From contig CAZMUW010000001.1 of NCBI GenBank assembly GCA_964569645.1, forward strand, positions 1-26,383: a stretch of DNA of 26,383 bases, given 5' to 3'. Source of the DNA: an uncultured Desulfobacteraceae bacterium (GTDB taxonomy: Bacteria > Desulfobacterota > DSM-4660 > Desulfatiglandales > B25-G16). A program made the position numbers and the translations under genes. Shown here in pieces: positions 1 to 26,375 of the stretch; position 1 is the first letter of the stretch, and the number at the start of each line of letters is the position of its first letter. The notes beneath the pieces were generated by a model that was given only the letters and a program-made list of their open reading frames with translations, had not been told where the DNA came from and did no database searches.

Positions 1-1757
1 GGAGGGTCAGTGGGGTAACTATAGGTCTGGCCGTCCAGGAGAGCTTCAGGGATCCTCAGGCTGGGCACGCTCTGATAAACAGGATTCACGGTGGGCAGCT
101 GAGGCGTCCTCTGGTACAAATTAACGGCCATCGCTGTACCTTCTAAATCACCGGACAATCCCCCCTCCGCGTAACCTGGAAAGAAAAAGCGAGTGTCTAC
201 TGGAGTCCCCTGCTGCATATTACCCATATTGATGCCGTGTTTGCCAAGGCCCTGCATGGCCATCAGACAGACCATAGAACGAGCCCATTCATTTCCAGTG
301 GCGCAGCGGCAGGCACCTCCAAAACCGCTTAGCCCCCCGGCAGCCAGGTATGTCTTTTTGGATCCCCATTCTCGGGCCAGGGCTCTAACGTCTTTTGCGG
401 GGATTCCCGCTTCCTTCTCCTGCCACCCAGGCGTTTTTGGTATCCCGTCATCATACCCCAAGATGTAGTCTTTCCATTTGTCAAACCCAGTAGTCCGTGC
501 TGCGACATATTCTTTATCGTAGAGATCTTCGGTTATCCAGACATAGGCGATGGCGAGAGCCAGGGCATTACCCGTAGCCGGTCTCGGGGCAAACCACTTG
601 CCGCCAAGCAGGGCCACCGTATGATTATAGAATGGATCAATGTGTACCATTTTGATGCCTAACTCTTTTAGCCATTGACGGCGAACGGTGCCCTCGAATG
701 CACCGTAGACCCCGCTGGTGGCCTCCGGATCACTCGACCAGAACACAACCATTTCACATTCCTTGAGGATATCTTCAACGGTACCGTAGGTCTCTGCCGC
801 GCCAAGACGCATGCTATACCCCCAATGATGCATGGCCCCCCAGTACCATCCCTCCCAACTGTCCGGATTATGCATAACGTAAGTCTGACCAATGGAGTTC
901 ATAAACCTGGGTTTGGTGCTTAACCAGTAACCTATGTGTCCCCACGTATGGTGAGACCCACTGCTGCTCATAATAGCGCCCGGACCATAGTCTCTTTTGA
1001 CTCTTTTGATTTCGTTGGCTACGATATCCGTGGCCTCATCCCAGCTGATCCGCTCATAGCCTGATATCCCTCTGTTCTTGCAGTTACGTTCACCGTTCGG
1101 ATCGAAATCGACCCGTTTCAAAGGGTACAGTAGCCTGTCAGGTGAATAGACCATCGATTTCCAGGCAAACGTATACGGAGAGACCGTGGTCTTCCGCGGA
1201 GGGATAAACCTTTTGCCCCTGGCCTCAATTATCCAGGGCTGTGCGTCGCTATCATCAAATTCAATGGGTGTGATACGTATTATCTTACCGTCTTTCACGT
1301 AAACAAAGAGTGGCCCGCCATTGGTATTACTGGTATACCTTTTTACCCCGCTACCAACGTCTGTGCCATATTCTATACCTGCTGACTGCATCAGACTGAT
1401 TGTCTCCAAAAACCAGTAGGTCAACTCATCATCCCCTTCCAGCAGTAAATGAAAATTTTTCATGGCATTAATCAGGGATAAGTAGTTCCTGGGCGGCATG
1501 AGGAGTTTGAAAGCCAAACCAGCACTGCTAAAGTTCATAGAGACTTCGGGGCTGGGATGAATTCCTCTTTTTGAGATAATATTGCCGTCACTGAAAGTAA
1601 AATATCTGCCCTCTGAATTATCCATAACCTTTATTTGGGCGGTGAAATTTTTTTCTTTGAGACGATTTTTGAATGATGGATATTTTCTTGCCGCGCGTCT
1701 TAACATTTGCTTAAGCCCAAAAAGTATTATTGAAAATGCCTGATTCGAAAGTTTCAT
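1..1757 (-). CDS. Molybdopterin (Mo-bisPGD, DMSO reductase family) oxidoreductase, pyrogallol hydroxytransferase large-subunit-like, with ~130-aa N-terminal extension; 3'-truncated by window edge
   Basis: Hand-translated minus-strand frame, open from ATG at 1757 (RBS AGAGGGGA just upstream) to position 1 with no stop, which is why the ORF track omits it. Contains NTNGGPLFVYVKDGKIIRITP, YERISWDEATDIVA, SGSHHTWG, HNPDSWEGW (Ser Mo-ligand codon 858-860), FWSSDPE and FPGYAEGG, matching the Pelobacter acidigallici transhydroxylase alpha subunit as I recall it. Confidence 0.92.
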   Translation of the reverse strand, partial: MKLSNQAFSIILFGLKQMLRRAARKYPSFKNRLKEKNFTAQIKVMDNSEGRYFTFSDGNIISKRGIHPSPEVSMNFSSAGLAFKLLMPPRNYLSLINAMKNFHLLLEGDDELTYWFLETISLMQSAGIEYGTDVGSGVKRYTSNTNGGPLFVYVKDGKIIRITPIEFDDSDAQPWIIEARGKRFIPPRKTTVSPYTFAWKSMVYSPDRLLYPLKRVDFDPNGERNCKNRGISGYERISWDEATDIVANEIKRVKRDYGPGAIMSSSGSHHTWGHIGYWLSTKPRFMNSIGQTYVMHNPDSWEGWYWGAMHHWGYSMRLGAAETYGTVEDILKECEMVVFWSSDPEATSGVYGAFEGTVRRQWLKELGIKMVHIDPFYNHTVALLGGKWFAPRPATGNALALAIAYVWITEDLYDKEYVAARTTGFDKWKDYILGYDDGIPKTPGWQEKEAGIPAKDVRALAREWGSKKTYLAAGGLSGFGGACRCATGNEWARSMVCLMAMQGLGKHGINMGNMQQGTPVDTRFFFPGYAEGGLSGDLEGTAMAVNLYQRTPQLPTVNPVYQSVPSLRIPEALLDGQTYSYPTDP

Positions 1758-1829
1758 ATGGTCCCCTCTATAAATATCTCAGACCAAGTTTTCCGGACCG
1801 GGATTCCATCGAGAATTCCCCTATTCCCT

Positions 1830-2603
1830 CTAACCTGCTGTATAACCACCATCCACATAAAGGACGGCCCCGGTCATAAAGTCGGATGCTTTAGATGACA
1901 GATAGATCACTGTTCCTATGAAATCCTCCGGCTCACCCAATCTTCCAATGGGGATGCGTTTCAAAAAATTCTTATAAAACGCACTATCATCAAACATCCA
2001 TTGAGTTAGCTCAGTCCGGAATACAGTCGGTGCAATTGCGTTGACATTTATTTTATGAGGCCCCCACTCGCAGCCCAGTGATTTAGTCATGAGAGAGATC
2101 GCTCCCTTCGACGGGCTATAGGCAGCGTAATTACTCATACCCAGCATTCCCCGGGTAGATGAAATCGGAATAACCTTTCCCCCACGTCCCTGGTCAATCA
2201 TAACCTTCCCTACCTCTTTACAATACAACCAGGTCCCCTTGACGTTTGCATCCATGATCATTTCCCATTCCTCGAGGGGTTGTTCGACGATGGGATTTGG
2301 TTTATTTACGCCTGCCGCAGTAATTAAAATGTCGATACCACCGAATCTATCAACAGTGTCCTTAACCACTCGCTTTACATCGTCATGATTAATCGGTGAG
2401 CCTACAGAAAAGGCAGCATCGCCACCGGCCTTTTCTATTTCCTCAACAAGCGGCTTAAGCTTTTCCTCAGTCCGTCCGGTAGCCATAATTTTTGCACCGG
2501 CATCCGCCAGACCCAGCGAAGCAGCATGGCCAAAGCCTCCAGTAGCCCCAGTGATAAGCGCGACCTTTCCACCAACGTCAAAAAGTGATTTCGTTTCTTG
2601 CAT
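1830..2603 (-). CDS. Short-chain dehydrogenase/reductase, phloroglucinol-reductase-like, probably NADP(H)-dependent
   Basis: TGATGGFG Rossmann motif, TGR at the end of beta-2, catalytic S...YSPSK, NAIAP, DGGYTAG C-terminus, RBS AGAGAGGG. The SDR call is firm. The phloroglucinol-reductase subfamily call rests on recalled similarity (GSP at beta-3, TAAGxNxPxPIVxQ, PTVFRxxLTxWMFD, NFLKRxPxGRLGEPEDFIG). Confidence 0.9.
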   Translation of the reverse strand: MQETKSLFDVGGKVALITGATGGFGHAASLGLADAGAKIMATGRTEEKLKPLVEEIEKAGGDAAFSVGSPINHDDVKRVVKDTVDRFGGIDILITAAGVNKPNPIVEQPLEEWEMIMDANVKGTWLYCKEVGKVMIDQGRGGKVIPISSTRGMLGMSNYAAYSPSKGAISLMTKSLGCEWGPHKINVNAIAPTVFRTELTQWMFDDSAFYKNFLKRIPIGRLGEPEDFIGTVIYLSSKASDFMTGAVLYVDGGYTAG

Positions 2604-3135: not shown

Positions 3136-4038
3136 TTACGCGATCAGGACATCCTTTTCCCAGCCCAGCTTGAGAACATGGATTCGGTCCGGCCGGCTGT
3201 TGCCCAGCCCGAATCGGGTGTCGGCTGCTGCAATGTGCCGGGGCGGTGGGCTGATGGGCCTTCCCATCCCGAAGAAGGCATCTCGCTTGGCCTGGATAAT
3301 CCGGGCGCCCGTAGTATCTGCGGCCACCGGATCGGTGCCTACGATCAGGCCGCAGTAGCGCCACGTGTGCCGACGGCTAAAGTGGTGGGGCCCGATGCCG
3401 TGAAACAGCGGCGTCAGCATCACCAGGATGTTGAGACGGGTTTTGTCCATGACATGGGGCAGCTTCCAGATAGCGCCCAGGTTCTCGCAGGCGTTGCCAT
3501 GGTACTTCGAGGGTCTGGGGATGAACATGATGTAGTTCTTGATGAGGGTGCCAAGGCCGGACCAGTAGTGGGTCCGCATGGGGCGAACGTTGATCAGGGC
3601 CGTGGACCGATTGAAGACGGGATTCCGCAACACTCCCCGATCATCGGCTGTCATGTTTTCCTTCTTGACACCCGAGTCAAGCAGGCGCTTCCGGATAGCC
3701 ACCTCCAACGGTTTTGGGGTTGGGAGATAGTACCAAACGTTGCTCTTAATGCCTACTATATCAGTGGGCCTGACCAACTGCTTCCAGGCGGATACTGGAT
3801 CAGGTGTATCGAGGAGGGTTGTTACAGCTTGGTCCAGCATTCTCTGCAAAATGACGGGCACGGGCAGCCCTTGTCTATCAAGGACGTTTTTGTCACGTAC
3901 CAATACCACCCGGCTCTTTCCGGGATTTTTATCGTGTGAATCCTCCAGCAGCGGAAGTCCCATGAGGCTTCCCATGGCCACGCATGAGCTGGCACGTATA
4001 AAATCACGCCGTGTAATGATCATTTTCTCTTCTGCCAT
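3136..4038 (-). CDS. DUF362 family protein with twin-arginine (Tat) signal peptide
   Basis: N-terminal TRRDFIR plus hydrophobic stretch. DUF362-like segments DIVGIKSN, INVRPMRTH, IKNYI and GTDPVAAD. Confidence 0.8.
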   Translation of the reverse strand: MAEEKMIITRRDFIRASSCVAMGSLMGLPLLEDSHDKNPGKSRVVLVRDKNVLDRQGLPVPVILQRMLDQAVTTLLDTPDPVSAWKQLVRPTDIVGIKSNVWYYLPTPKPLEVAIRKRLLDSGVKKENMTADDRGVLRNPVFNRSTALINVRPMRTHYWSGLGTLIKNYIMFIPRPSKYHGNACENLGAIWKLPHVMDKTRLNILVMLTPLFHGIGPHHFSRRHTWRYCGLIVGTDPVAADTTGARIIQAKRDAFFGMGRPISPPPRHIAAADTRFGLGNSRPDRIHVLKLGWEKDVLIA

Positions 4039-4105
4039 ATGACCAAACTCCGTCTTTCATATACCCTGCCTCCTCACCATACTTTGCGGCTAAGATTAAC
4101 CACAA

Positions 4106-5038
4106 CTAATTTCGAGAAGTTGTTCCCGTTACTCTTTTTAAAAGGCTCCTGGCGAGCTGCCGGCTGTCGGTCTCCAAAACTATCGCCAGCAGCTTATCCT
4201 TTGCGGCAGCGGCGGACCACTTTCCGTTTTCCAGCAAGACCACGCCTGTTGAGTCTGCTTCGGGCAGGTAATGCCTTGAAAAGCTTGCAAGGGCTTTTTC
4301 CGCTTTTCCTACACTGGGGTACATGACCAGAAGCAGTCTGGCATATTCTCCGCCCCGCTGGTACATGGCAAGGGCAGCATCCGTGTGAGGCCCAAGGTTA
4401 AGGATGTTTTCGTCTGCTAGATAGAAGTGGTAGTTCAGCACAATATGGTGATGAAGGTATCGGACACTCCTGGGCTGAAGTCCCTCCGGGGGCAGTTGCA
4501 AAAGGATCCGTGGCTTGGGGCCCTGGGCAGTAATGAGCGAAGCCACGACCTTGCCCAGCTCCTTAACAGCTTTTACGGCTAGGGCCGTTTCCTCTTCCGC
4601 GTAAATGGAGACGAAGAATCGATCTTTCCAGAAGCTCAGCCAGCCAGACCGGTAAAGGGCACCTTGTCCCACGTCTAATGCTTCTCCGTCCTGGTCGTGG
4701 GTGAAAACCCCAAAAGCATCTTCCGAAGATGCCATTTCGAAGATGTCCAGAGCGATGGGAGGGCCTTTGGGGGTTGTATAGCGGCGGGAAAGGCACTTCC
4801 GCATGTTGTAGGCCCTGTAGACCTCACCTGCGCCGTCGATATAGTCGAAAATGGTTTCATCATCGAAAAAGCGGTCCTCCGGTTCTGCAATCCAGCCCTT
4901 TATTTGGTTTGGTAGAGCCGCATGTAAAACATCGAGAGAATCTGCATAGGATTTCTGAATCATCAAAAGCGCCGAACCGCCTATCAGTAATGCGATAAGG
5001 AAGAAAAATAGTACCTTAGTCGGGAGAGCTCCTTTCAT
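4106..5038 (-). CDS. Exported protein, DUF6599-like
   Basis: N-terminal signal/TM segment; DETIFDYIDGAGEVYRAY and IFEMxSSEDAFGVF motifs; lies directly upstream of the DUF362 gene on the same strand. Confidence 0.65.
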   Translation of the reverse strand: MKGALPTKVLFFFLIALLIGGSALLMIQKSYADSLDVLHAALPNQIKGWIAEPEDRFFDDETIFDYIDGAGEVYRAYNMRKCLSRRYTTPKGPPIALDIFEMASSEDAFGVFTHDQDGEALDVGQGALYRSGWLSFWKDRFFVSIYAEEETALAVKAVKELGKVVASLITAQGPKPRILLQLPPEGLQPRSVRYLHHHIVLNYHFYLADENILNLGPHTDAALAMYQRGGEYARLLLVMYPSVGKAEKALASFSRHYLPEADSTGVVLLENGKWSAAAAKDKLLAIVLETDSRQLARSLLKRVTGTTSRN

Positions 5039-5259
5039 AAAGGCTTCCTCGTGCCATAGTTACAGAACGATGCGACCACCATTTCAAGGTGATTTTGTGG
5101 CTAAATGAGCTATTTTACTATACCATAACCTGGATCTATCTCAAAACTATTGATAGCCTCTCAAAGTCTTCCCCAGCTGAAATGTCAGGCACCTCTTCAT
5201 CCTCCAGCCGTCCTATCAATTGAGACAGGGAGTAGTACGGAGCAAATTTAAGGCTTCAC

Positions 5260-6057
5260 TCAAAGAGCAGCAACCATGGCAGCTAACTTCTCTCTGCTTA
5301 TCCTCAGATAGTCCCTGTCCCTTGAGAAGACCTCAAGGGTTACTGTCTCGTCGTATCCGATTCCCTTGAGGGCCTTGATGATCTTCAGGAAATCGATGGT
5401 CCCTACCCCGATAGGAAGATGATTGTCCTCTTTGCCGAAGTTATCGGTTGCGTGGATATGGCCAATTCGATCATAAAACCTCTCGATAAAATCCAGGGCC
5501 TTCTTGCCTCCTTTGCTCTCAATATGCGCATGCCCTGTATCGAGGGTCAGCTTGAGTGTCGAAAACCTCTCGAAGACCTCGACAAAGTCCTCCGGATCGA
5601 CGAGTGAATGGAATCGGGGAAACATGTTCTCGATGCAAAGACAGATTCCGAGTTGATCGGCCTTTTCTACAATGGCCTCGAGACTCTTGAGGGCATATTG
5701 TCTTGCCTGATCCATCACAAAGACGGCGAGTCCTACAATATAGCTCGGATGCAGAACAACTTTAAGGGGCCGAAGATCGGCCGCGACCTCGAGGGATTCG
5801 AGTACCTCATTCAGGGATGTTTCTCTCAGGCTATCGGTGAGATCTGCCGTGGAGACAAAGGTCGGAAGATGACAAATGAGTCCCATCTTACAGCGATCTA
5901 AGGTCCTCAATAGCTCTTCTTTCTGTTGACGGATCATCCTGTAGTGTGCCTGAGGAGGATCCATGGCCAACTCCAGGTAATCAAATCCCAGCCCTGAAAT
6001 TGACTCAAGCTCTTTAAGGAATGGCCTGATGGGGAAATTCATGGCCCCGTACAGCAT
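5260..6057 (-). CDS. Sugar-phosphate isomerase/epimerase (AP endonuclease 2 / XylA-like TIM barrel)
   Basis: Metal-binding motifs CIENMFP, LDTGHA, HIHATDN, NHLPIGVG and TLEVF. Start placed at ATG 6057 (MLYGAMNF) because AGGAGGTGAT at 6074-6065 is a perfect SD and overlaps the track's GTG at 6069. Confidence 0.85.
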   Translation of the reverse strand: MLYGAMNFPIRPFLKELESISGLGFDYLELAMDPPQAHYRMIRQQKEELLRTLDRCKMGLICHLPTFVSTADLTDSLRETSLNEVLESLEVAADLRPLKVVLHPSYIVGLAVFVMDQARQYALKSLEAIVEKADQLGICLCIENMFPRFHSLVDPEDFVEVFERFSTLKLTLDTGHAHIESKGGKKALDFIERFYDRIGHIHATDNFGKEDNHLPIGVGTIDFLKIIKALKGIGYDETVTLEVFSRDRDYLRISREKLAAMVAAL

Positions 6058-6414
6058 CGGTATTATCACCTCCTTTCAGGGCTTCCATACCATATCCTTT
6101 CCTTCCAAACAACCATAATCTATCCATTTGATTGAACATAAGAGAGTCCCGCTCCCAGCGTTCTCCTTGAGAAAAAAACGAAGATCGGAAATGAGAAGAA
6201 ATGTGCTCGAACGCCTGTGCATCTGGCTGGGCTCACTGCGCACTTGCTCCCCAGGAAGTGATTTTAAAAAGTGATTTTTTGTCTTGACAATGGGGGCCAT
6301 ATCATGAGAGCTTTCTTTTCGATGGATCAGTAGGTACATGCAATTATATCGAATTAATTCCTAAACCCGGCCATGGTGAAGATAAGATATAGTTCATGAA
6401 GAAAGGAGAAAACG

Positions 6415-7854
6415 ATGGCTGTCAAGACTGTAGAGGAGTACTACGACTCACTGAAAGGCCTGCATCCAACCACCTATATTCTGGGAGAAAAGGTAGAAAA
6501 CCCTTATAAGCACCCATTGATCAGGCACATGCTGGCAGGAGTTGCCAAGACCTATGACCTTGCTCATGATCCGGAGGGTAAAAATTATCTGGTAGCCGAA
6601 TCCGAGCTGATTGGAGAGGAGGTTAGCCGCTTCGTCAAGTTCTACAAAAGCAGGGATGACCTCCTGGCCAAGGTCAGAATGCTGAAATTCCTGGCCCAGA
6701 GAATCGGCACCTGCTTTATGCGGTGCACAGGTATGGATGCCATGAACTCCGTAGGGGTAGAGGCCTACAACTGTGACAAGAAATACGGCACCGATTATTG
6801 GGATAGACTCCTGAATTTTGTCAAGCACGTGCAGAAGAACGACTTTGTTGTCTTTAGTGGTGTGACCGATGTCAAGGGTGACAGATCCCTCCGCCCATCG
6901 GAGCAGAAAGACCCGGACATGTACGTGCATGTGGTAGAGAAGAAAAACGACGGTATTGTAGTCAGAGGTGCCAAGATACACCAGACAGGCTCTCTCTGCG
7001 CTCACTGGGGACTGATAGTGCCCACCAGAGAGATGCGCGAGCCAGACAAAGACTATGCCGTCTGTTTTGCTGTCCCGGTAGATGCCGAGGGCATGATTCA
7101 CGTTTACGGCAGGGGCACCCTGGAAGCCAGGGCCCTTGAGGATTGTGACCTCGGTAATGTTGAATACAGCAAGTTCGCGCCCATGGTCATTCTCAATGAT
7201 GTCTTTGTGCCCTGGGAGCAGGTGTTTTTGTGTGGCGAATATGAGTTTGCCGGCCCGATGGTGAGGAACTTCGGTAACTACCACCGTCATTCACATGGTG
7301 GCTGCAAGTGTGGTGTTGGTGACGTTCTTATCGGCGCTGCGGCAGCAGCCGCTGAATACAACGGTCTTCCTAATGTTTCACATATCAACTCCAAATTAGC
7401 AGAGATGATCAAGACCATAGAGGCAATCTATGGCTGCTCCATAGCCGCATCAGTGGAGGCTGAGCCAACAGAGTCAGGCATCTACATGGTTGACCCGGTT
7501 CTCTCCAACACATCCAAGCTCTACGAGGGCAAGGAGCTGCAAGAGGTAATCCGGCTTATGATTGAGATTGCCGGCGGCATGGTGACTGATCTGCCTTCAG
7601 AGAAAGACATGGAGAATCCAGAAATTGGCCCATTACTCCAGAAATATCTCAAGGGCGTGGAGAACGTCCCCACAGAAGACAGGATGCGTCTCTTCAGGCT
7701 TATTGAAAAGCTGGCATTTGAGAGCCGGGATATCGTCTCCAACATCCATGGCGCCGGCTCACCAGAGACACACAAGATGACCATACTGCGGAATGCGGAT
7801 ATTGAGTCAAAGAAGATGCTGGCCAAGAATCTGGCGGGCATCAAGGAAGAATAA
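6415..7854 (+). CDS. 4-hydroxybutyryl-CoA dehydratase (AbfD)-like FAD/[4Fe-4S] protein with divergent active site
   Basis: CFMRC (C100, C104), YHRHSHGGCK (H290, C297), TDVKGDRSLRP, GAKIHQTG and HGAGSP motifs; RBS AAAGGAG upstream. Confidence 0.88.
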   Translation: MAVKTVEEYYDSLKGLHPTTYILGEKVENPYKHPLIRHMLAGVAKTYDLAHDPEGKNYLVAESELIGEEVSRFVKFYKSRDDLLAKVRMLKFLAQRIGTCFMRCTGMDAMNSVGVEAYNCDKKYGTDYWDRLLNFVKHVQKNDFVVFSGVTDVKGDRSLRPSEQKDPDMYVHVVEKKNDGIVVRGAKIHQTGSLCAHWGLIVPTREMREPDKDYAVCFAVPVDAEGMIHVYGRGTLEARALEDCDLGNVEYSKFAPMVILNDVFVPWEQVFLCGEYEFAGPMVRNFGNYHRHSHGGCKCGVGDVLIGAAAAAAEYNGLPNVSHINSKLAEMIKTIEAIYGCSIAASVEAEPTESGIYMVDPVLSNTSKLYEGKELQEVIRLMIEIAGGMVTDLPSEKDMENPEIGPLLQKYLKGVENVPTEDRMRLFRLIEKLAFESRDIVSNIHGAGSPETHKMTILRNADIESKKMLAKNLAGIKEE

Positions 7855-7905
7855 TAGAGACAGGCCAGTTTTTTATGTTCATAAAAAGAAGGAGGAGGTA
7901 TTCAG

Positions 7906-8742
7906 ATGAAAGCTGCATTCACACTTATACCTGCAGAGTCGAGGAGGCTGATCGCAAAGGCTGTTGTGCATATGGAAGAGATCAAGATCGCAAAACAGAA
8001 GGCCTATATCATACTCAACGGCGGGACAACGAATGGCTACATAGCGCAAGAGCTTCTTGGGATGAGAGACCTTGAGCCTCAAAAATTTACCGCAGGCACC
8101 AACACGCACAGGCTCCTGTGTGTGACCGATGCCGATAAGCGAACGCCTTTCCCAATAATCCTTTATAAGGGGGAGAGATCCTCAAAAACCCTTCCTGAAT
8201 CCTTACAGGACTTTCATATCGAGACCGTGCTGATCAAAGGGGCAAATGCAATAGACCCTGAAGGAAATGTCGGTGTGATCACATCGGGTTTCGACGGTGG
8301 AACGATTGGGGCGACTTACGGCACTGTAACATCCCAAGGGCTGAAGTATATTTTCGCCGTGGGGCTGGAGAAGCTGGTGGCCTCGGTTAAAGAGGCAGCA
8401 GCCTGGGCAGGCGGCAAGACCCTCGATTACACAATGGGAGCGGATTTCGGCATGTTCTGTATTCCAAACGGAACCGTTGTAACGGAGATTGAGGCACTCA
8501 AGATTTTAGCCGGCGTGGAGGCAAAACATATCGCATCCGGTGGTGTGGGCGAATCGGCCGGTTCAGTGGTCCTGGTGATTAAGGGGGAGGAGGCAAAGGT
8601 CAGAAAGGCAATCTCCATTGTCGAATCAATCAAGGGGGAGCCGGCCTTGAAGGGATTTAAAGGCACGTGCGAGAAATGTCCCTATGCTTGTAAGTTTGCG
8701 GGAAAAAAGGCGGGCGATCTCCCAGCATGGCTGACCGATTGA
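7906..8742 (+). CDS. Conserved hypothetical protein, possible NagB/RpiA/CoA-transferase-like fold, with C-terminal CxxCxxxC
   Basis: Strong RBS (AGGAGGAGGT), codon usage like its neighbour. Motifs GGTTNGYI, IKGANAID, GGTIG and VGLEKLV; CEKCPYAC at 8668-8691. Fold is inference. Confidence 0.75.
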   Translation: MKAAFTLIPAESRRLIAKAVVHMEEIKIAKQKAYIILNGGTTNGYIAQELLGMRDLEPQKFTAGTNTHRLLCVTDADKRTPFPIILYKGERSSKTLPESLQDFHIETVLIKGANAIDPEGNVGVITSGFDGGTIGATYGTVTSQGLKYIFAVGLEKLVASVKEAAAWAGGKTLDYTMGADFGMFCIPNGTVVTEIEALKILAGVEAKHIASGGVGESAGSVVLVIKGEEAKVRKAISIVESIKGEPALKGFKGTCEKCPYACKFAGKKAGDLPAWLTD

Positions 8743-8861: not shown

Positions 8862-8938
8862 TGGTCGGGACGACTGGATTTGAACCAGCGACCCCAGCGT
8901 CCCGAACGCTGTGCTCTACCAGGCTGAGCCACGTCCCG
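8862..8938 (-). tRNA. tRNA-Pro (anticodon CGG)
   Basis: Reverse complement CGGGACGTGGCTCAGCCTGGTAGAGCACAGCGTTCGGGACGCTGGGGTCGCTGGTTCAAATCCAGTCGTCCCGACCA, 77 nt, with full cloverleaf, anticodon stem CAGCG/CGCTG, TTC T-loop and encoded CCA. Confidence 0.98.
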
Positions 8939-9728: not shown

Positions 9729-10730
9729 TTAAATGGTTGTTGTTGGCTTATGGACTGGAGAGGTTGCCTTTTCAATAGTAGTTACAATACTTCCACCCCT
9801 AAATATAGTTACCCTTCCACTCGACTCAGAGATGACTAAGGCAACTGAATCTGTTACCCCGGTGATAGCCGCAGCGGATGAATGCCTGGCACCCAGACCC
9901 TGGGGCATGGGTTCCCCATGATAGGCGGCATTGAGATAGCTTCCAGCTGCCAGGACAACACCATCATCTCTTATGACAAAGGCCCCATCAATAGAGGAGA
10001 ACTCCTTTAATGTTTCTCGAACTTCGGGCTTACTGATATGCAAAACATCCTCAGCGTGTCCCTGGAAGGGATTGAGAACCAACTGGTGGGAATATTGAAG
10101 CACCTTTTTATGGTCACCCAGGACAAATGTACTTCCAATAGGCTTCCCTTCCCTACCCTCATATGCCATCTCCACGACCAAAGTAAGAAGAGATTCGAAT
10201 ATGTCATGCTTTATGTTCTTAGGGAAAGGGGAGTCTTCCGCGAAACTGACGATCTCGGATTCATCCCCTACCTTCAGTACCATTATGGTATCCATAAACC
10301 CCTTTTCCGGTTGTCCACCCACACATACAAGGATATCACCCTTAGATAATATTCCCTTGGAGATGCCTGCCAGAAAGCCGAACTTTAGATAACCATCTCT
10401 GGTCAGGTAAACATCAGGGAGCATAATGGTATTGCCCCTTAAGCCAGTAGCCTTTTCCAGGGATATTTCCCTTTTAGTTACCAGGATAATCTTAAACTTT
10501 TTTCCCTCCGCCTTCAAAATGGGGACAATGTCTGCTGCGGACTCCATGTTAACCAAGATAGCGTCGGCCTTGAGCTTATTTGCTATAGATATGGCCTGCT
10601 TAAGCATTAATTCAGTCCAATTTGCCGACTCTATCCTTTTAATTTCTGCACCACTCTCATCCCTGGCTCTCTTGCTACCAACAATAGATAACCTCTCCTC
10701 TTTTTTCTTTTTTAATTTATTTGGTTCCAC
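9729..10730 (-). CDS. Diadenylate cyclase, DacZ-like (N-terminal pyruvate-kinase-C-like domain plus DisA_N/DAC domain)
   Basis: EGREGKPIGSTFV, SIDGAFV (DGA), GLGARHSSAA and VISESSG motifs. Start placed at GTG 10730, 7 nt after AGGAG (10742-10738). The track's 10787 start lies inside a repeat. Confidence 0.88.
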   Translation of the reverse strand: MEPNKLKKKKEERLSIVGSKRARDESGAEIKRIESANWTELMLKQAISIANKLKADAILVNMESAADIVPILKAEGKKFKIILVTKREISLEKATGLRGNTIMLPDVYLTRDGYLKFGFLAGISKGILSKGDILVCVGGQPEKGFMDTIMVLKVGDESEIVSFAEDSPFPKNIKHDIFESLLTLVVEMAYEGREGKPIGSTFVLGDHKKVLQYSHQLVLNPFQGHAEDVLHISKPEVRETLKEFSSIDGAFVIRDDGVVLAAGSYLNAAYHGEPMPQGLGARHSSAAAITGVTDSVALVISESSGRVTIFRGGSIVTTIEKATSPVHKPTTTI

Positions 10731-10753
10731 AATCTTTCTCCTTTTACGTTTGA

Positions 10754-10823
10754 GGTTCGTTGGGTTTATTGTGTTTGTTGTGTTCACTATTAACTCAATA
10801 AACCCAACAAACCCGATAAACTC
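10754..10823. repeat. Palindromic element of 9-bp tandem units (copy 1)
   Basis: Arm GGTTCGTTG/GGTTTATTG/TGTTTGTTG/TGTTC then arm AACTCAATA/AACCCAACA/AACCCGATA/AACTC; between the pyrE stop and the dac start. Confidence 0.85.
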
Positions 10824-13603: not shown

Positions 13604-13649
13604 TTTAACTTTAGGCACTTTAGGCACTTATAACTTTAGGCACTTTCAT
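13604..13649. repeat. ACTTTAGGC 9-mer tandem repeat cluster
   Basis: Units at 13608-13616, 13617-13625 and 13633-13641. The 24-mer ACTTATAACTTTAGGCACTTTCAT (13626-13649) recurs exactly at 16412-16435, and a 14-mer recurs inverted at 26338-26351. Confidence 0.85.
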
Positions 13650-13658
13650 ATAAATATC

Positions 13659-16082
13659 ATGTTCGAGAAAAAGAAGGGCAAAAAGTTAGAAAAGGAAATC
13701 ATATCCCCATTGAAAAGATTGGGGGCATGGTTCGGGCTGGTTAATTCCAGATTTCAAATATGGATTTATCTAATCATCTTAAGTGGTACCATTTCCTTTC
13801 TCATTTTCCCCAACTTGCTTGTAATATCAAAAGAAGAGTATTCTTTTGGCGATGTGGCAAATAAGGATATCAAGGCATCTCATGATTTTGATGTAGAAGA
13901 TAAGGAATTGACAAAACAGAGGAGAGATGAGGCAGTAAAATCATATCTCTTTGTCTATGACTTTGACAGGTCAGGGGCATATCTTGGTGACAGGATGAAA
14001 GAATCCTTCAGCTATGGAAGGACGGAGCTAGACCATATTTTATCAATTGAGTTGGAGCCAACTCTACGTTCAGAAAAACTTGGAGAATTAAGAGACAAAT
14101 TCTTTGAGCTTGTAGGAATTACTGGAGACCCTGCTCTCTTTGACCAACTTGTCAAAAATAGTTTTTCTTCCCAGATAAAGAATAGTGTATTGGATGCAGT
14201 AAATCAAATTTTAGAGAAAGGGGTTGTAGGGAGCAAGACAGTTTTGATGACCCAGAAAGAAAAAGGAATAATTCTCCGGGATATAGATACTCAAAAGGAG
14301 TTAAAGGTAGATGATCTTGATCGTTTTTATAATCTTGAAGATGCTCGCCAACATGTAAGTCAGATAATAGACCAACACATAATAAATGAAGATGGATCAG
14401 AGATTGTTGGTACAACAGGGCTATTTGCTAAATTGGTCATAAGGCCTAATATAACCTTTAATAAAAGGGAAACAGAGCTACGAAAAGAGGAGGCCAGAGA
14501 ATCGGTAAAACCTATCTATTTCAAGGTTAAAAAGGGTGAGATGATTATTAGAGAGGGAGAAAAAATAAACCCAACCCATCTATTAAAATTGGAGACCGAG
14601 GCCAGATTAAAGAGAAACCCCCCTATCCCGGGTATGGCCCTTAGCATGGCCGTAATGATTGGTATCTTGTTAGCCTTGAGTTATGTTGTACTTCTCAGGA
14701 GGTCTAATGCCTTCAAAGGGGATACCAGGAGCCTCATATTTAATAGCTCGACCCTTTTATTCATGTTTTTGCTTGTGCTACTGTATAATATAGTGGGTGA
14801 AGAGGTAGCCCGGGGTTTCTATTTTTTTAGTATTCAAGTTCTTCTCTTTGCCTTGCCAATTTCTCTGGGGGCTATATTGGTCTCTATCTTTCAGGGATTG
14901 GATGCGGCAATCGCCTTTTCATTGATCATCTCTATTCTGGCTTCCATTGTTATGGAAGGAAGGATAGAGTTTTTTGTTTATTTCCTGCTAGGCTCTCTGC
15001 TGGCTGCCTATGGGGTAAGAAATTGTAGGGAAAGAAGGATATTGATAAGAACAGGAATGAGGGTTGGTCTTTTAAATATTGTTATGGCTGTATCGATCCA
15101 GACCCTACTATACGGAAATCCTTACTCTCAAGCAGGTGGCATTTCTCTCATTGCTGGTTTTCTGGGAGGTTTCCTGGCTGGTGTTATAGCTACCGGTTTT
15201 TTACCATTGATAGAGATGATCTTCGGTTTTACCACGGATATCAAGCTGCTGGAGTTGTCCAGCTTGGATCAGCCAATCCTTAAAGATTTGATGGTTAAAG
15301 CCCCTGGTACTTATCATCATAGTGTCATTGTCAGCACCATGGTTGAGGCAACAGCTGAAAGTATCCATGCCAATCCCCTCTTGACAAAAGTAAGTGCCTA
15401 TTACCATGACATAGGAAAGATAAAGAAACCACTCTACTTTGTAGAAAATCAAGTGAGGGGCGACAACAGACATGAGAAACTTGCACCTTCTATGAGTAGC
15501 CTTATATTAATCTCACATGTCAAAGATGGTATAGAGCTTGCAAAACAACATAGGCTTGGAAAGGAGATAATAGATATTATCCAGCAACACCAGGGCACAG
15601 GTCTAATCTCCTATTTCTATCAAAAGGCCAAGGAGCAAAGTGAGAAAAAAGGGAGTAGATCCTCGCCTGCTAAAGAAGAAGATTTCAGATATCCTGGACC
15701 TAAGCCCCAGACTAAAGAGGCAGGACTTGTTTTAGTGGCAGATGGAGTGGAGGCTGCATCAAGAACCTTAGTCGACCCTACCCCTGCAAGGGTTAAAGGA
15801 ATGGTTCAGAAGATCATAAACAATGTCTTCTCAGATGGACAGCTTAATGAATGCGAATTGACATTGAAGGATTTAAACCAGATAGCCAAAAGCTTTACCA
15901 AGACATTAAGCGGAATCTTTCACAGCCGGATTGAATATCCAGAACCTACAGGAAAAGGAGAAACAGATAAGAAGAGAAAAAATGGAGATCCAAATAACCT
16001 GCCAGTACCCCCTGAAAAACATAGATCCCGGGAAGATAAAAATGAAGCTAACGGGGATCTTAAAAGGCTTGGAATACCATGA
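13659..16082 (+). CDS. 7TM-HD membrane phosphohydrolase (PgpH-like)
   Basis: 7TMR-HD extracellular domain, multi-TM block, APGTYHHS, YYHDIGK, HVKDG and ADGVEAASR; canonical phoH-HD-ybeY context. Confidence 0.93.
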   Translation: MFEKKKGKKLEKEIISPLKRLGAWFGLVNSRFQIWIYLIILSGTISFLIFPNLLVISKEEYSFGDVANKDIKASHDFDVEDKELTKQRRDEAVKSYLFVYDFDRSGAYLGDRMKESFSYGRTELDHILSIELEPTLRSEKLGELRDKFFELVGITGDPALFDQLVKNSFSSQIKNSVLDAVNQILEKGVVGSKTVLMTQKEKGIILRDIDTQKELKVDDLDRFYNLEDARQHVSQIIDQHIINEDGSEIVGTTGLFAKLVIRPNITFNKRETELRKEEARESVKPIYFKVKKGEMIIREGEKINPTHLLKLETEARLKRNPPIPGMALSMAVMIGILLALSYVVLLRRSNAFKGDTRSLIFNSSTLLFMFLLVLLYNIVGEEVARGFYFFSIQVLLFALPISLGAILVSIFQGLDAAIAFSLIISILASIVMEGRIEFFVYFLLGSLLAAYGVRNCRERRILIRTGMRVGLLNIVMAVSIQTLLYGNPYSQAGGISLIAGFLGGFLAGVIATGFLPLIEMIFGFTTDIKLLELSSLDQPILKDLMVKAPGTYHHSVIVSTMVEATAESIHANPLLTKVSAYYHDIGKIKKPLYFVENQVRGDNRHEKLAPSMSSLILISHVKDGIELAKQHRLGKEIIDIIQQHQGTGLISYFYQKAKEQSEKKGSRSSPAKEEDFRYPGPKPQTKEAGLVLVADGVEAASRTLVDPTPARVKGMVQKIINNVFSDGQLNECELTLKDLNQIAKSFTKTLSGIFHSRIEYPEPTGKGETDKKRKNGDPNNLPVPPEKHRSREDKNEANGDLKRLGIP

Positions 16083-16419
16083 CTGTGAGCTGAGCTTACT
16101 CTTTACAGACGATAAACATATAGCAGAGTTAAATTACCGTTTTCTCAAAAGAGAAGGCCCGACAAATGTTCTTGCCTTTCCGATGAGAGGTGATGAACGC
16201 AGCGAGCCTGAGACACCAATGCTGGGGGATATAGTCATATCCTTAGATGCTGCTATGAGGGATGCGAAAAGAGGTGGTGAGAGCCTTAACAATGCTATTG
16301 ATAGACTTTTAATCCATGGTCTTTTACACCTTTTAGGTTATGACCACGAAAGGTCAGAGGAGGAAGCCCGGCGGATGGAAGAAGAGACGGAAAGGTTGTT
16401 GGCGGCGTTTAACTTATAA
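15982..16419 (+). CDS. ybeY: rRNA maturation endoribonuclease YbeY
   Basis: LNYRFLKREGPTNVLAFP, LGDIVIS and HGLLHLLGYDH. Start taken at ATG 15982, overlapping the HD gene tail. Confidence 0.95.
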   Translation: MEIQITCQYPLKNIDPGKIKMKLTGILKGLEYHDCELSLLFTDDKHIAELNYRFLKREGPTNVLAFPMRGDERSEPETPMLGDIVISLDAAMRDAKRGGESLNNAIDRLLIHGLLHLLGYDHERSEEEARRMEEETERLLAAFNL

Positions 16420-16433
16420 CTTTAGGCACTTTC

Positions 16434-16820
16434 ATGATTTATGGCATTGGCATAGATCTTGTGACAATAAAGAGGATTGGAAGAGTAATCGATAGATGGG
16501 GGAAAAGGTTTATAAATAGGATATTTACTGCCCGGGAAATTAATTTCTGTTTTCAAGGTACAAAATCAGTGTCTTCCCTTGCCCTGCGTTTTGCTGCCAA
16601 GGAAGCCTTCTCAAAGGCGATAGGATTGGGTATGAGAAAGGGCATCAGGTGGCAAGATATTGAGATTGTTCAAAACCCAAGTGGCCGGCCTGACCTTAAT
16701 GTAACTGGAAAGGCCCTTAGTTTCTGTCGTAAGGAGGGAATAAGAAGGTGGTATGTTAGCCTTTCAGATGAGGGTGACTATGGCATAGCTGTGGTAGTAC
16801 TTGAAAAAGGCTCTACATAA
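16434..16820 (+). CDS. acpS: Holo-[acyl-carrier-protein] synthase
   Basis: GIGIDLV, RFAAKEAFSKAIGLG, GRP and VSLSD motifs. Confidence 0.95.
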   Translation: MIYGIGIDLVTIKRIGRVIDRWGKRFINRIFTAREINFCFQGTKSVSSLALRFAAKEAFSKAIGLGMRKGIRWQDIEIVQNPSGRPDLNVTGKALSFCRKEGIRRWYVSLSDEGDYGIAVVVLEKGST

Positions 16821-23331: not shown

Positions 23332-24216
23332 ATGGCGCAAATCAAGAAAGCTCACCGAGGCCTGAGCATCTCTAAGGCTTTGTTAACTAAATCAGGGCTT
23401 AGACCCAGGAAAAGCCTGGGGCAACACTTTCTGGAAGACCCTGCTATAATTGAGAAAATCATAGCCCAGGCAAGATTTGATAAAAACGATGTGGTTGTAG
23501 AAATAGGGTCGGGTTTAGGGGCCTTGACGATCCCAATCCTCCCTCACATTTATCATTTGGTGGCTATAGAAAAAGATCCATTATTGATAAATATATTAAA
23601 AGAAAGACTTTCCCTGAAAGAGAAGGAAAAGATAACATTTATTTCCGGGGATGTCCTGAGATTAAATCTTAAAGGGATCTATGATAAATTTGAACAAAAG
23701 ATCAAGATATTAGGCAATCTTCCCTATAATATCTCATCCCCATTCCTGGAAAGGCTTATAATAAATCGAGATTATATCAAAAGTGCGATCCTGATGTTTC
23801 AATTTGAGGTGGCACAACGATTGACTGCCGGGCCAAGAAAAAGGGAATACGGCGCCCTTAGCGTTATCAGTCAATACTATGCCCGGATATCTCCCCTTTT
23901 CAAGATTAAAAGGGATGCCTTTTACCCCCAGCCAAAGGTTGATTCTATGGTTTTAGAGATTGATTTTGAGAAACCATATCCATCTCAAGCAGAAAACGAG
24001 GAATCTTTCCATAGGATTGTCAAGGAAGCATTTAGTTGCCGGAGGAAGACAATCCTTAATTCCCTTGAAAGGGGAATGGTGTCTGTACCCAGGGAAATGA
24101 TAGCAAAGGCCCTTAAAAAATGCCTCATTGACCCAAAAAGAAGGGCTGAGACCCTCACTATAGATGAATACATTCGTTTGAGCTCTGTCCTACAGACTTC
24201 GTTAAGTAGAAACTAG
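23332..24216 (+). CDS. rsmA: 16S rRNA m6,2A1518/1519 dimethyltransferase RsmA (KsgA)
   Basis: KSLGQHFL, VEIGSGLGALT, GNLPYNIS, MFQFEVAQR, PKVDS and RAETL. Confidence 0.96.
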   Translation: MAQIKKAHRGLSISKALLTKSGLRPRKSLGQHFLEDPAIIEKIIAQARFDKNDVVVEIGSGLGALTIPILPHIYHLVAIEKDPLLINILKERLSLKEKEKITFISGDVLRLNLKGIYDKFEQKIKILGNLPYNISSPFLERLIINRDYIKSAILMFQFEVAQRLTAGPRKREYGALSVISQYYARISPLFKIKRDAFYPQPKVDSMVLEIDFEKPYPSQAENEESFHRIVKEAFSCRRKTILNSLERGMVSVPREMIAKALKKCLIDPKRRAETLTIDEYIRLSSVLQTSLSRN

Positions 24217-24622
24217 TTGAGTGGTTAAGTTGTATAACAATGACAATAATATGAATATGTTACATGAGATCAAAAGTCAAATGTCCAATTTTGGGGCTTA
24301 TGCCTAATATTCTCATAATAACACGTCTCGGAAATTGTATAACTCATTGAAATAACAGTTATTTTAATGGAGCATGTTTCATTTAGTCCAGATGGAATAA
24401 TGGAATGGTGGAATATTGGAATGTTGGTTTGAATAAGGAACTCATACATTTTATTGCCTCCCTGTCAAGAGGAATTTTGCCAATAGACCAGTACCCCATT
24501 TTTCCGGAACCCATTATTTTTACCCCGTGAAACTCCTTCTATTTCACTGGGGCCATCATTCCACTATTCCAACATTCCAATTGTGAGCGAAGCGAACTAA
24601 GTTCCTACTCAACGACTCAACC
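24216..24622. repeat. Nested inverted-repeat elements in the rsmA-dnk intergenic region
   Basis: Outer imperfect arms 24216-24232 and 24605-24622. Inner TGGAATNN x4 (24393-24427) versus (NNATTCCA)n (24553-24580). Innermost hairpin CCCCGTGAAA/TTTCACTGGGG (24523-24552). Confidence 0.75.
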
Positions 24623-26234: not shown

Positions 26235-26353
26235 ATAAAAAATAAGGCAGCGATCAACTGACTTTTATCATTTACAATTTGTTTACCTTTTGGTACATAA
26301 CTTAAACCTGACCTGACTTTAATACTAATATCAAGTTAAGTGCCTAAAGTTTA

Positions 26354-26375
26354 ACCCGCCGTAAGTCTGGCGGGT
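26354..26375. repeat. GC hairpin next to an inverted ACTTTAGGC-family copy at the window edge
   Basis: ACCCGCC-gtaagtct-GGCGGGT. No U-tract follows, so it is not called a terminator. Confidence 0.4.

Follow-up and report, generated by a model that had tools for sequence, protein, structure and literature searches.

At the left end of the 26,383-bp contig analysed here in its entirety (the window), two minus-strand genes code for a short-chain dehydrogenase/reductase (SDR) and for the large catalytic subunit of a molybdenum bis(pyranopterin guanine dinucleotide) (Mo-bisPGD) enzyme. This SDR-Mo pair is probably what remains, as a core, of an anaerobic trihydroxybenzene-to-phloroglucinol module of which relatives have the complete version. 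Anoxic sediments and peat contain much carbon in polyphenols (tannins, flavonoids and phlorotannins among them), a pool held to be recalcitrant, whose anaerobic degradation is funnelled through phloroglucinol.

In the proposed scheme, the Mo-bisPGD protein would act in the cytoplasm as the catalytic subunit, with a Ser-ligated Mo centre and an added N-terminal SCP2-fold domain. It would move or add a hydroxyl group on a polyhydroxybenzene to yield phloroglucinol, the likeliest reaction being the transhydroxylation of pyrogallol. Pyrogallol is thereby the most likely candidate substrate, not an established one. The SDR would then dearomatise phloroglucinol to dihydrophloroglucinol in an NADPH-dependent manner. 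In the wider clade, the module would continue with the dihydrophloroglucinol cyclohydrolase DPGC (a cyclase), the 3-hydroxyacyl-CoA dehydrogenase (3HCDH) TfD and the beta-keto acid cleavage enzyme (BKACE) TAL, accompanied by a cupin and an iron-sulfur (FeS) beta subunit. The species-level lineage would keep cyclase, cupin, SDR and Mo gene together while the window keeps SDR and Mo gene only, the missing partners presumably being encoded elsewhere.

The SDR-Mo gene pair and the identity of the SDR

An initial annotation of the window had described an SDR gene and a Mo-bisPGD gene, co-oriented and 72 bp apart, the latter being missed by the list of open reading frames (ORFs). Both statements were borne out. 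The layout of the locus is the following:

1830-2603, minus strand: SDR gene, 257 amino acids, ATG start, present in the ORF list
1758-1829, minus strand: SDR-Mo spacer of 72 bp, with a GAGGGG ribosome-binding site at 1768-1763
1-1757, minus strand: 5' part of the gene for the Mo-bisPGD large catalytic subunit, ATG at 1757, stop-free for 585 codons to base 1

The Mo gene is cut by the contig end because the window is the whole contig, and it is missing from the ORF list only because its reading frame runs past the end of the sequence. Full-length Mo orthologues (99% identical) have 988 residues, of which the window keeps 585 of about 988 codons. A mis-called Mo start was considered and rejected, as nearly all of the best 120 homologues align from about residue 1. 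A Shine-Dalgarno-like GAGAGGG (2617-2611) precedes the ATG of the SDR gene, and GAGGGG precedes that of the Mo gene. No terminator-like site was found on the minus strand within the 72-bp spacer, and the two genes are probably co-transcribed. The promoter search upstream of the SDR gene returned no sigma-54 site (matches at chance level) and no sigma-70 site. At the contig end itself, window positions 20-106 hold 5 of the 12 differences from the sister contig L001 (99.6% identical), and these five alter Mo residues 551, 563, 566, 573 and 580, otherwise invariant or near-invariant. This cluster in the first ~106 bases is probably contig-end noise.

The SDR gave full-length Pfam matches to adh_short_C2 (2e-54) and adh_short (3e-48), and its translation contains the classical motifs TGATGGFG and YSPSK. 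No database record is identical to it. Its best solved relative is 5G4K/5G4L (246 bits, 47% identity, E = 3e-72 for 5G4K), which we take to be the phloroglucinol reductase (PGR) of Clostridium sp. ATCC BAA-442 (Conradt et al. 2016). That a PGR structure exists was confirmed by Zhou et al. (2023, PMC10470551). The substrate-loop motif PTVFR(T/S)(E/D)LT(Q/E)WMFD is common to the SDR and 5G4K and is not found in 1VL8, the best-matching gluconate 5-dehydrogenase (Gno) structure. The 'TGRT' of the SDR aligns with 'TGRN' of 5G4K, so that the 2'-phosphate motif for NADPH keeps its Arg, here followed by Thr; this motif has been described as TR(S/N) in PGRs (Zhou et al. 2023, PMC10470551). The SDR is a probable PGR. 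It would share the type of an NADPH-dependent classical SDR with both the Clostridium enzyme and CsPGR from C. scatologenes, and the 2'-phosphate Arg and the loop motif with the former, from which it differs by an identity of 47% only and by Thr where PGRs have Ser or Asn. As in the known PGR systems, orthologues of the window SDR adjoin the genes of DPGC, TfD and TAL. In particular, an SDR 80.5% identical to that of the window is found in locus L004 within a BKACE-SDR-3HCDH-Mo-beta cluster.

The initial annotation would have been contradicted by a grouping of the SDR with Gno or KduD, away from PGRs. In that case the SDR would be an ordinary sugar-acid dehydrogenase and a chance neighbour of the Mo gene, which is very improbable. 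Models for Gno, glucose 1-dehydrogenase and KduD do come first in NCBIfam when ranked by score, but the SDR remains below every curated Gno, KduD and FabG cut-off (e.g. 225.7 vs 279; 203 vs 339). Moreover, 1VL8 (183 bits, 36% identity) is outscored by 5G4K by 63 bits, the substrate loop is that of 5G4K and the adjacency of the SDR to Mo and phloroglucinol-pathway genes is kept across phyla. A Gno/KduD identity was rejected on these grounds, and the grouping favours PGR.

Family, active site and N-terminal domain of the Mo subunit

Three regions were delimited in the Mo subunit:

1368-1757, minus strand: SCP2-fold domain, residues ~1-130 (AlphaFold2 and Foldseek)
1152-1316, minus strand: AhtL-like first domain, residues 148-202 (PF21423, 1.6e-30, profile positions 1-55 of 55)
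1-1136, minus strand: molybdopterin-binding catalytic region (PF00384), holding counterparts of AthL active-site residues

The fragment scored 104.8 bits with PF21423 (AhtL-like_1st; cut-off 27), and PF00384 (Molybdopterin) was also matched. Residues 138-577 align with residues 4-460 of 4V4C_A, the large subunit of pyrogallol hydroxytransferase (AthL), with E = 7e-174, and the resemblance noted initially is thus real for this gene as it is for the SDR. DMSO and TMAO reductases match far behind (E about 1e-43; 3e-43 for DMSO reductase). The full-length orthologue P0001 aligns with AthL from end to end at 56% identity. The Mo protein is accordingly assigned, from its sequence, to the AthL/RhL branch of the DMSO-reductase (MopB) family. 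The AthL/RhL family was described as coordinating Mo through Ser and as including a second characterised activity, that of the resorcinol hydroxylase RhL (PMC10100899). Its relatives are numerous: at least 546 stretches were found in one-genome-per-species GTDB representatives, mostly of sediment Desulfobacterota and Dehalococcoidia. Relatives of the Mo gene come from Desulfobacterales, Desulfatiglandales, Dehalococcoidia and others.

The active-site residues of AthL (catalytic and substrate-binding roles as reported by Messerschmidt et al. 2004) have the following counterparts in the Mo protein:

AthL Ser175 (Mo ligand): S300, kept, in the motif NPDSWEGW (HMMER alignment to 4V4C_A)
AthL His144: H269, kept
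AthL Asp174: D299, kept
AthL Trp176: W301, kept
AthL Tyr404: Y529, kept
AthL Tyr560: Y675 of the full-length orthologue, beyond the window fragment, kept
AthL Arg153: W278, changed
AthL Trp354: F479, changed

Among 42 homologues S300 is invariant, and the other counterparts present in the window fragment, like the changed positions W278 and F479, vary little or not at all; Y675 is invariant in the full-length alignment. The Phe at the position of AthL Trp354 is common to the window protein and RhL.

The comparison with RhL (UniProt A0N0U2) was made on its first 400 residues, taken from a published supplement:

Window protein vs RhL: 64.7% identity, 1 gap, over the comparable 399 residues
Window protein vs AthL, same region: 60.5% identity, 9 gaps
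RhL vs AthL: 58% identity, 10 gaps

A midpoint-rooted, distance-based neighbour-joining tree without bootstrap was computed from 365 shared columns of the window protein, AthL, RhL and 86 loci. Both AthL and RhL lie outside the large environmental clade that holds the window protein, AthL being the outlier, and the sub-clade of the window protein is the one where phloroglucinol genes most often adjoin. The initial annotation had seen in the Mo protein a resemblance to the pyrogallol transhydroxylase. An AthL orthologue was rejected, the protein being slightly closer to RhL by identity and outside AthL and RhL in the tree. It falls in a third, uncharacterised environmental clade, and its substrate cannot be read from homology alone.

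With AthL (PgtL) from Pelobacter acidigallici (4V4C; P80563), the window protein shares the Mo-bisPGD DMSO-reductase-family fold, the AhtL-like first domain, the absence of a twin-arginine translocation (Tat) signal and of an N-terminal Fe-S motif and, in its relatives, a genomic association with phloroglucinol catabolism. The identity amounts to 60% over the first 370 residues and to 56% for the full-length 988-residue orthologue. AthL differs by an 8-residue insert, GLSKQDPW, absent from the window protein and RhL, and the window lineage differs by having no adjacent beta gene. Among characterised sequences, RhL (RehL) from Azoarcus (Aromatoleum) anaerobius (A0N0U2) comes closest over the residues compared. 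However, it is encoded in a cluster of resorcinol and hydroxyhydroquinone dehydrogenase genes and not with PGR, DPGC, TfD and TAL, its net oxidation requires an electron acceptor and the window protein lies outside any RhL clade in the tree.

The alignment with AthL begins at residue 138 of the window protein, and the preceding ~135 residues are without AthL counterpart. This N-terminal extension is kept in relatives: the best 120 homologues (~988 residues) cover at least 92% of the query, nearly all of them 97-100%, and the extension is also kept in 80 GTDB loci. The domain alone was found in 475 representative clusters, including genuine stand-alone proteins of 120-128 residues. Its AlphaFold2 model, from an alignment of 34 diverse members, has a predicted local distance difference test score (pLDDT) of 91.6. 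In a Foldseek search of the PDB the top 34 matches all have the SCP2 fold (UbiJ-SCP2, alkylsulfatase C-terminal domains, sterol carrier proteins), the best being UbiJ-SCP2 6H6O (E = 1e-5, template modelling score 0.58-0.70). The predicted fold of residues 1-125 is the one of 6H6O, of alkylsulfatases 2YHE and 2CFU and of sterol carrier protein 2 (E 1e-5 to 1e-3), but sequence identity to these proteins is 8-17% only. The Pfam SCP2 family (PF02036) gave no match to the window domain even at E = 10, and a profile of the domain searched against PDB sequences gave only insignificant SCP2-like matches (E = 0.19 or worse). Weak Pfam SCP2 matches were obtained for some of the stand-alone proteins, of which only P0232 reaches the cut-off (22.0 bits vs 21.3). 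The AlphaFold2 model of the full 988-residue orthologue (42-sequence alignment) had a mean pLDDT of 42 and was usable for the N-terminal domain only. A split arrangement, with the SCP2 domain encoded as a separate 'third subunit' beside short AthL genes, was not supported: the gene of P0232 adjoins HypA and no Mo enzyme.

The annotated start of RhL (MVIGRDELSVWF...) lies inside the SCP2 domain, residues 1-33 of A0N0U2 aligning with residues 105-137 of the window protein. RhL therefore probably carries the domain as well, with a probably mis-annotated start, and its true ORF probably extends some 100 residues further on the N-terminal side. The AthL of P. acidigallici is the exception in lacking the domain. 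No description of an SCP2 fusion to a Mo-bisPGD enzyme was found in the literature searched. SCP2 domains such as that of UbiJ bind isoprenoid quinone precursors. In the Mo subunit, the domain may hold the substrate or a co-substrate, or contact the membrane or a quinone.

This domain and the likeness to RhL give substance to another explanation, in which the Mo enzyme would be an RhL-type redox hydroxylase of a di- or trihydroxybenzene (e.g. resorcinol at C5 or a phlorotannin-derived unit) whose product the SDR would reduce. Electrons would exit via a beta subunit or a quinone, the SCP2 domain aiding contact with the membrane or quinone. The higher identity and lower number of gaps with RhL than with AthL would fit such an enzyme, as would the features held in common with RhL (no 8-residue insert, Phe in place of Trp354, at least a portion of the SCP2 domain), the outlying position of AthL in the tree, the FeS beta subunit kept by most family members and the match to UbiJ-like domains with their quinone-precursor ligands. 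Nevertheless, a hydroxylase requires an exit for electrons and the window lineage is without adjacent beta subunit; phloroglucinol genes are found in place of the RhL gene context (hydroxyhydroquinone dehydrogenase etc.); and we know of no enzyme forming phloroglucinol by hydroxylation. On balance we give this explanation a small chance.

Gene context in relatives and in the window lineage

The gene context was counted on 80 species-representative loci kept from GTDB. At 82% identity, loci L005 and L006 encode an IclR regulator, a cyclase (PF04199), a Cupin_2 protein, the SDR, 3HCDH, BKACE, the Mo subunit (1002 residues) and an FeS beta subunit (278 residues). Similar clusters are present in L004, from a 5-Mb deltaproteobacterial genome, and in L008. 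Orthologues of both window genes, 78-83% identical, are thus encoded in complete phloroglucinol-pathway clusters together with the beta subunit. The latter directly follows the Mo gene in 63 of the 69 other family loci with enough flanking sequence. When at least 5 kb of upstream sequence was present, at least one phloroglucinol-pathway gene was found within 10 kb in 19/47 loci and all four genes in 7/47, and these phloroglucinol-linked loci concentrate in the sub-clade of the window protein. The identity of the cyclase with DPGC, of 3HCDH with TfD and of BKACE with TAL was shown biochemically for the anaerobic phloroglucinol pathway, and the gene cluster had previously been reported from sulfate reducers (Zhou et al. 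2023, PMC10470551). For Chloroflexi of sediments, mentions of AthLS-like genes go back to 2013. Judging from these clusters and prior reports, the association of SDR and Mo gene is real, recurs and had been recognised before.

The four families of the published PGR-DPGC-TfD-TAL cluster (PMC10470551) are clustered likewise in L004, L005, L008, L010, L043 and others. The Desulfobacterota and Chloroflexi versions add the AthL/RhL-type Mo enzyme, the beta subunit and Cupin_2, and the window holds PGR and the Mo subunit only. The Cupin_2 gene has the DPGC-type cyclase on one side and the PGR-type SDR on the other (1006-1371 in L001, 6772-7053 in L005, and in many of L009-L088), a placement conserved in the phloroglucinol clusters of Desulfobacterota and Chloroflexi. 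The word 'cupin' is absent from the text of the paper on the C. scatologenes pathway (PMC10470551). In L008, the beta subunit of the Mo enzyme is directly followed by an arylsulfotransferase and a TRAP transporter (13833-15407), which hints at the use of sulfated phenolics.

The closest lineage is represented by five independent contigs with 96-100% protein identity (L001-L003, L098 and L099). The cyclase, Cupin_2, SDR and Mo (988 residues) genes follow one another in that order in L001, L098 and L099, with a divergent DUF364 gene upstream in L098 and L099. The cyclase of the sister contigs has W24-P25-Y26, i.e. a W-x-Y motif of the same pattern as the Trp20/Tyr22 signature of CsDPGC (Zhou et al. 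2023, PMC10470551). The initial annotation had suggested that a beta subunit and a cyclohydrolase be looked for to the left of the window. Instead, cyclase and cupin are upstream of the SDR in the sister contigs, and a FliL gene, convergent with the Mo gene, comes next in all five contigs. The intergenic regions vary: the SDR-Mo spacer has 265 bp in 96% relatives (L099 3269-3533) vs 72 bp in the window and L001, and the cupin-SDR spacer 79 bp in the 96% relatives L098 and L099 vs ~275 bp in L001. Small intergenic insertions come and go between strains. The GC content of the phloroglucinol cluster (0.48-0.49) contrasts with that of the flanking FliL gene (0.35) and of the housekeeping part of the window (0.41), which suggests horizontal acquisition.

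Several results weigh against the assignment of the pair to trihydroxybenzene catabolism. Around the active site, Arg153 and Trp354 of AthL are replaced by Trp and Phe, and over the region compared the Mo protein seems about as close to RhL as to AthL, or slightly closer to RhL. By tblastn, neither a beta subunit nor a remnant of it was found after the Mo gene in the five closest contigs, which also have no TfD or TAL gene, and no cyclase, cupin, 3HCDH, BKACE or beta gene was found in the window. As the window lacks cyclase, cupin, TfD and TAL, it holds a two-gene remnant and not the polyphenol operon initially proposed. Finally, the Mo gene of L098 (96% relative; 4467-7432) is called as two pieces of 868 and 120 residues, reflecting either a frameshift (pseudogene) or a sequencing error. 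The proposed trihydroxybenzene catabolism is thus supported in part: the complete clusters of the 78-83% relatives favour it, and it is weakened, for the window's own lineage, by the absent beta subunit, an outcome that the initial annotation had named as contradicting it. Within the family, a net non-redox transhydroxylation would nonetheless be the only reaction for which an electron-transfer subunit is in principle dispensable.

The same reduction could mean that a horizontally acquired phloroglucinol cluster is in decay or has lost its function, the pair being its remnant and no longer supporting growth on trihydroxybenzenes. A gene set smaller than in the 78-83% relatives, the split Mo gene of L098, the deviating GC content of the cluster from FliL and the core genome (0.41) and the intergenic insertions and deletions varying between strains would all be expected of decay. 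However, the 988-residue Mo ORF is intact in L001-L003 and L099, and the 96-99% identical clusters P0002-P0011 also have 988 residues; the catalytic residues are conserved, the missing genes may sit elsewhere in the unassembled genome and the L098 split may be a sequencing error. Decay is for these reasons regarded as unlikely, and a surviving core of the trihydroxybenzene-to-phloroglucinol module is preferred.

The kind of system is already known, and little is added here to the established presence of such genes in sulfate reducers and Chloroflexi. New are the third clade, the SCP2-fold fusion, the beta-less arrangement of the lineage and the conserved cupin. The widespread environmental form of the Mo enzyme, neither AthL nor RhL, is tightly linked to PGR, DPGC, TfD, TAL and cupin genes. 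Considering this clade, its SCP2 domain and its linkage, the metagenome annotations 'pyrogallol hydroxytransferase' and 'TMAO reductase' therefore rest on assumption, and the biochemistry of one clade member would calibrate hundreds of them. The beta-less version would be a natural test of the need for the FeS subunit in transhydroxylation. As a tentative and rather doubtful proposal, the SCP2-fused AthL/RhL-like enzymes might form a third functional class whose substrates, instead of free pyrogallol, would be compounds such as resorcinol, hydroxyhydroquinone or the extra-hydroxylated units found in phlorotannins of brown algae, and whose products would enter the phloroglucinol pathway. A holding or contact module would then be the role of the SCP2 domain, and the enzyme of the window lineage would serve as a beta-less, non-redox hydroxyl shuttle.

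The junction upstream of the SDR and the remainder of the window

The features to the right of the SDR gene are the following:

2631-2881, no strand: GC-rich, hairpin-bearing non-coding segment with repeats, containing the divergence point 2862
Within 3136-8742: DUF362 protein (Tat-like N-terminus), DUF6599 protein (signal peptide), TIM barrel, HpaB-family protein and a 278-residue ORF without family
8862-8938, minus strand: tRNA-Pro(CGG), exactly at the GC step

The non-coding segment contains a hairpin, CCCTCCCCC-GTCAA-GGGGGAGGG, at 2655-2677 and a 30-nt imperfect inverted repeat, 2701-2730 / 2852-2881, which is completed by the window junction. Window and L001 are 99.6% identical over 3-2862 and part company beyond that point, which is 15 nt from the end of the L001 cupin gene. 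This junction lies inside a 232-nt GC-rich insert common to the window and L001 only and absent from L099 and L098 (96%). The DUF362 gene is also carried by four other contigs (three or four samples), each of which breaks off at 2868 or 2873 in window coordinates. The 30-mer of the window-type junction has no other occurrence in the metagenome collection, and the 24-mer of the L001-type junction matches only L001 itself there. From 5250 rightwards, over the tRNA and into the core genome, the sequence is confirmed by independent contigs.

The placement of the SDR-Mo pair beside the DUF362, DUF6599, TIM-barrel, HpaB-like and tRNA-Pro region may thus be an assembly chimera, the real upstream neighbours being cyclase and cupin. 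We regard this as a serious possibility, somewhat short of an even one. Three independent relatives (L001, L098, L099) have cyclase and cupin upstream, and the exact divergence from L001 so near the cupin stop codon, the common end of the four DUF362-bearing contigs, the junction 30-mer found nowhere else and the noisy left contig end would all be explained by a mis-join. On the other hand, a shared break point is also expected from a real structural variant or a co-existing second copy, the ~11 nt shared across the junction are too short for a k-mer-based mis-join, the window junction completes the inverted repeat and the L001-type junction is itself seen in L001 only.

No link of the 3136-8742 block to phloroglucinol metabolism was found. 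Its TIM barrel is of the sugar-isomerase type (xylose-isomerase-like), and its HpaB-family protein is possibly of the 4-hydroxybutyryl-CoA dehydratase type. At tRNA-Pro(CGG), the GC content steps from ~0.50 on the left to ~0.41 on the right, with housekeeping genes beyond, and the site resembles the border of a genomic island. The window has no visible integrase. The link of the SDR-Mo pair to the accessory region of the initial annotation rests on a single unreproduced junction (2862-2873). A deltaproteobacterial host, also proposed initially, is reasonable: the best named relatives of TsaD include a marine sediment metagenome, Desulfobacterales and Desulfatiglandales are among the sources of Mo-gene relatives, and the host is taken to be a Desulfobacterota-type organism of marine sediment.

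Elsewhere in the window, a 118-bp non-coding stretch downstream of ksgA (24193-24310) is 86% identical to 7565-7682 of L001, at the end of that contig. No Rfam match reached the gathering score, and the recurrence suggests a dispersed intergenic element or a small RNA. A diadenylate cyclase (9729-10787, minus strand) has a pyruvate-kinase-C-like / DacZ_P sensor domain and is nearer to the haloarchaeal DacZ model (139 bits, cut-off 430) than to the bacterial CdaA or DisA models. An exact 24-nt direct repeat, ACTTATAACTTTAGGCACTTTCAT, is present at 13626-13649, upstream of a 7TM-HD gene, and at 16412-16435, at the start of acpS, with an inverted partial copy at 26338-26366 near the right contig end; it may be a shared regulatory motif.

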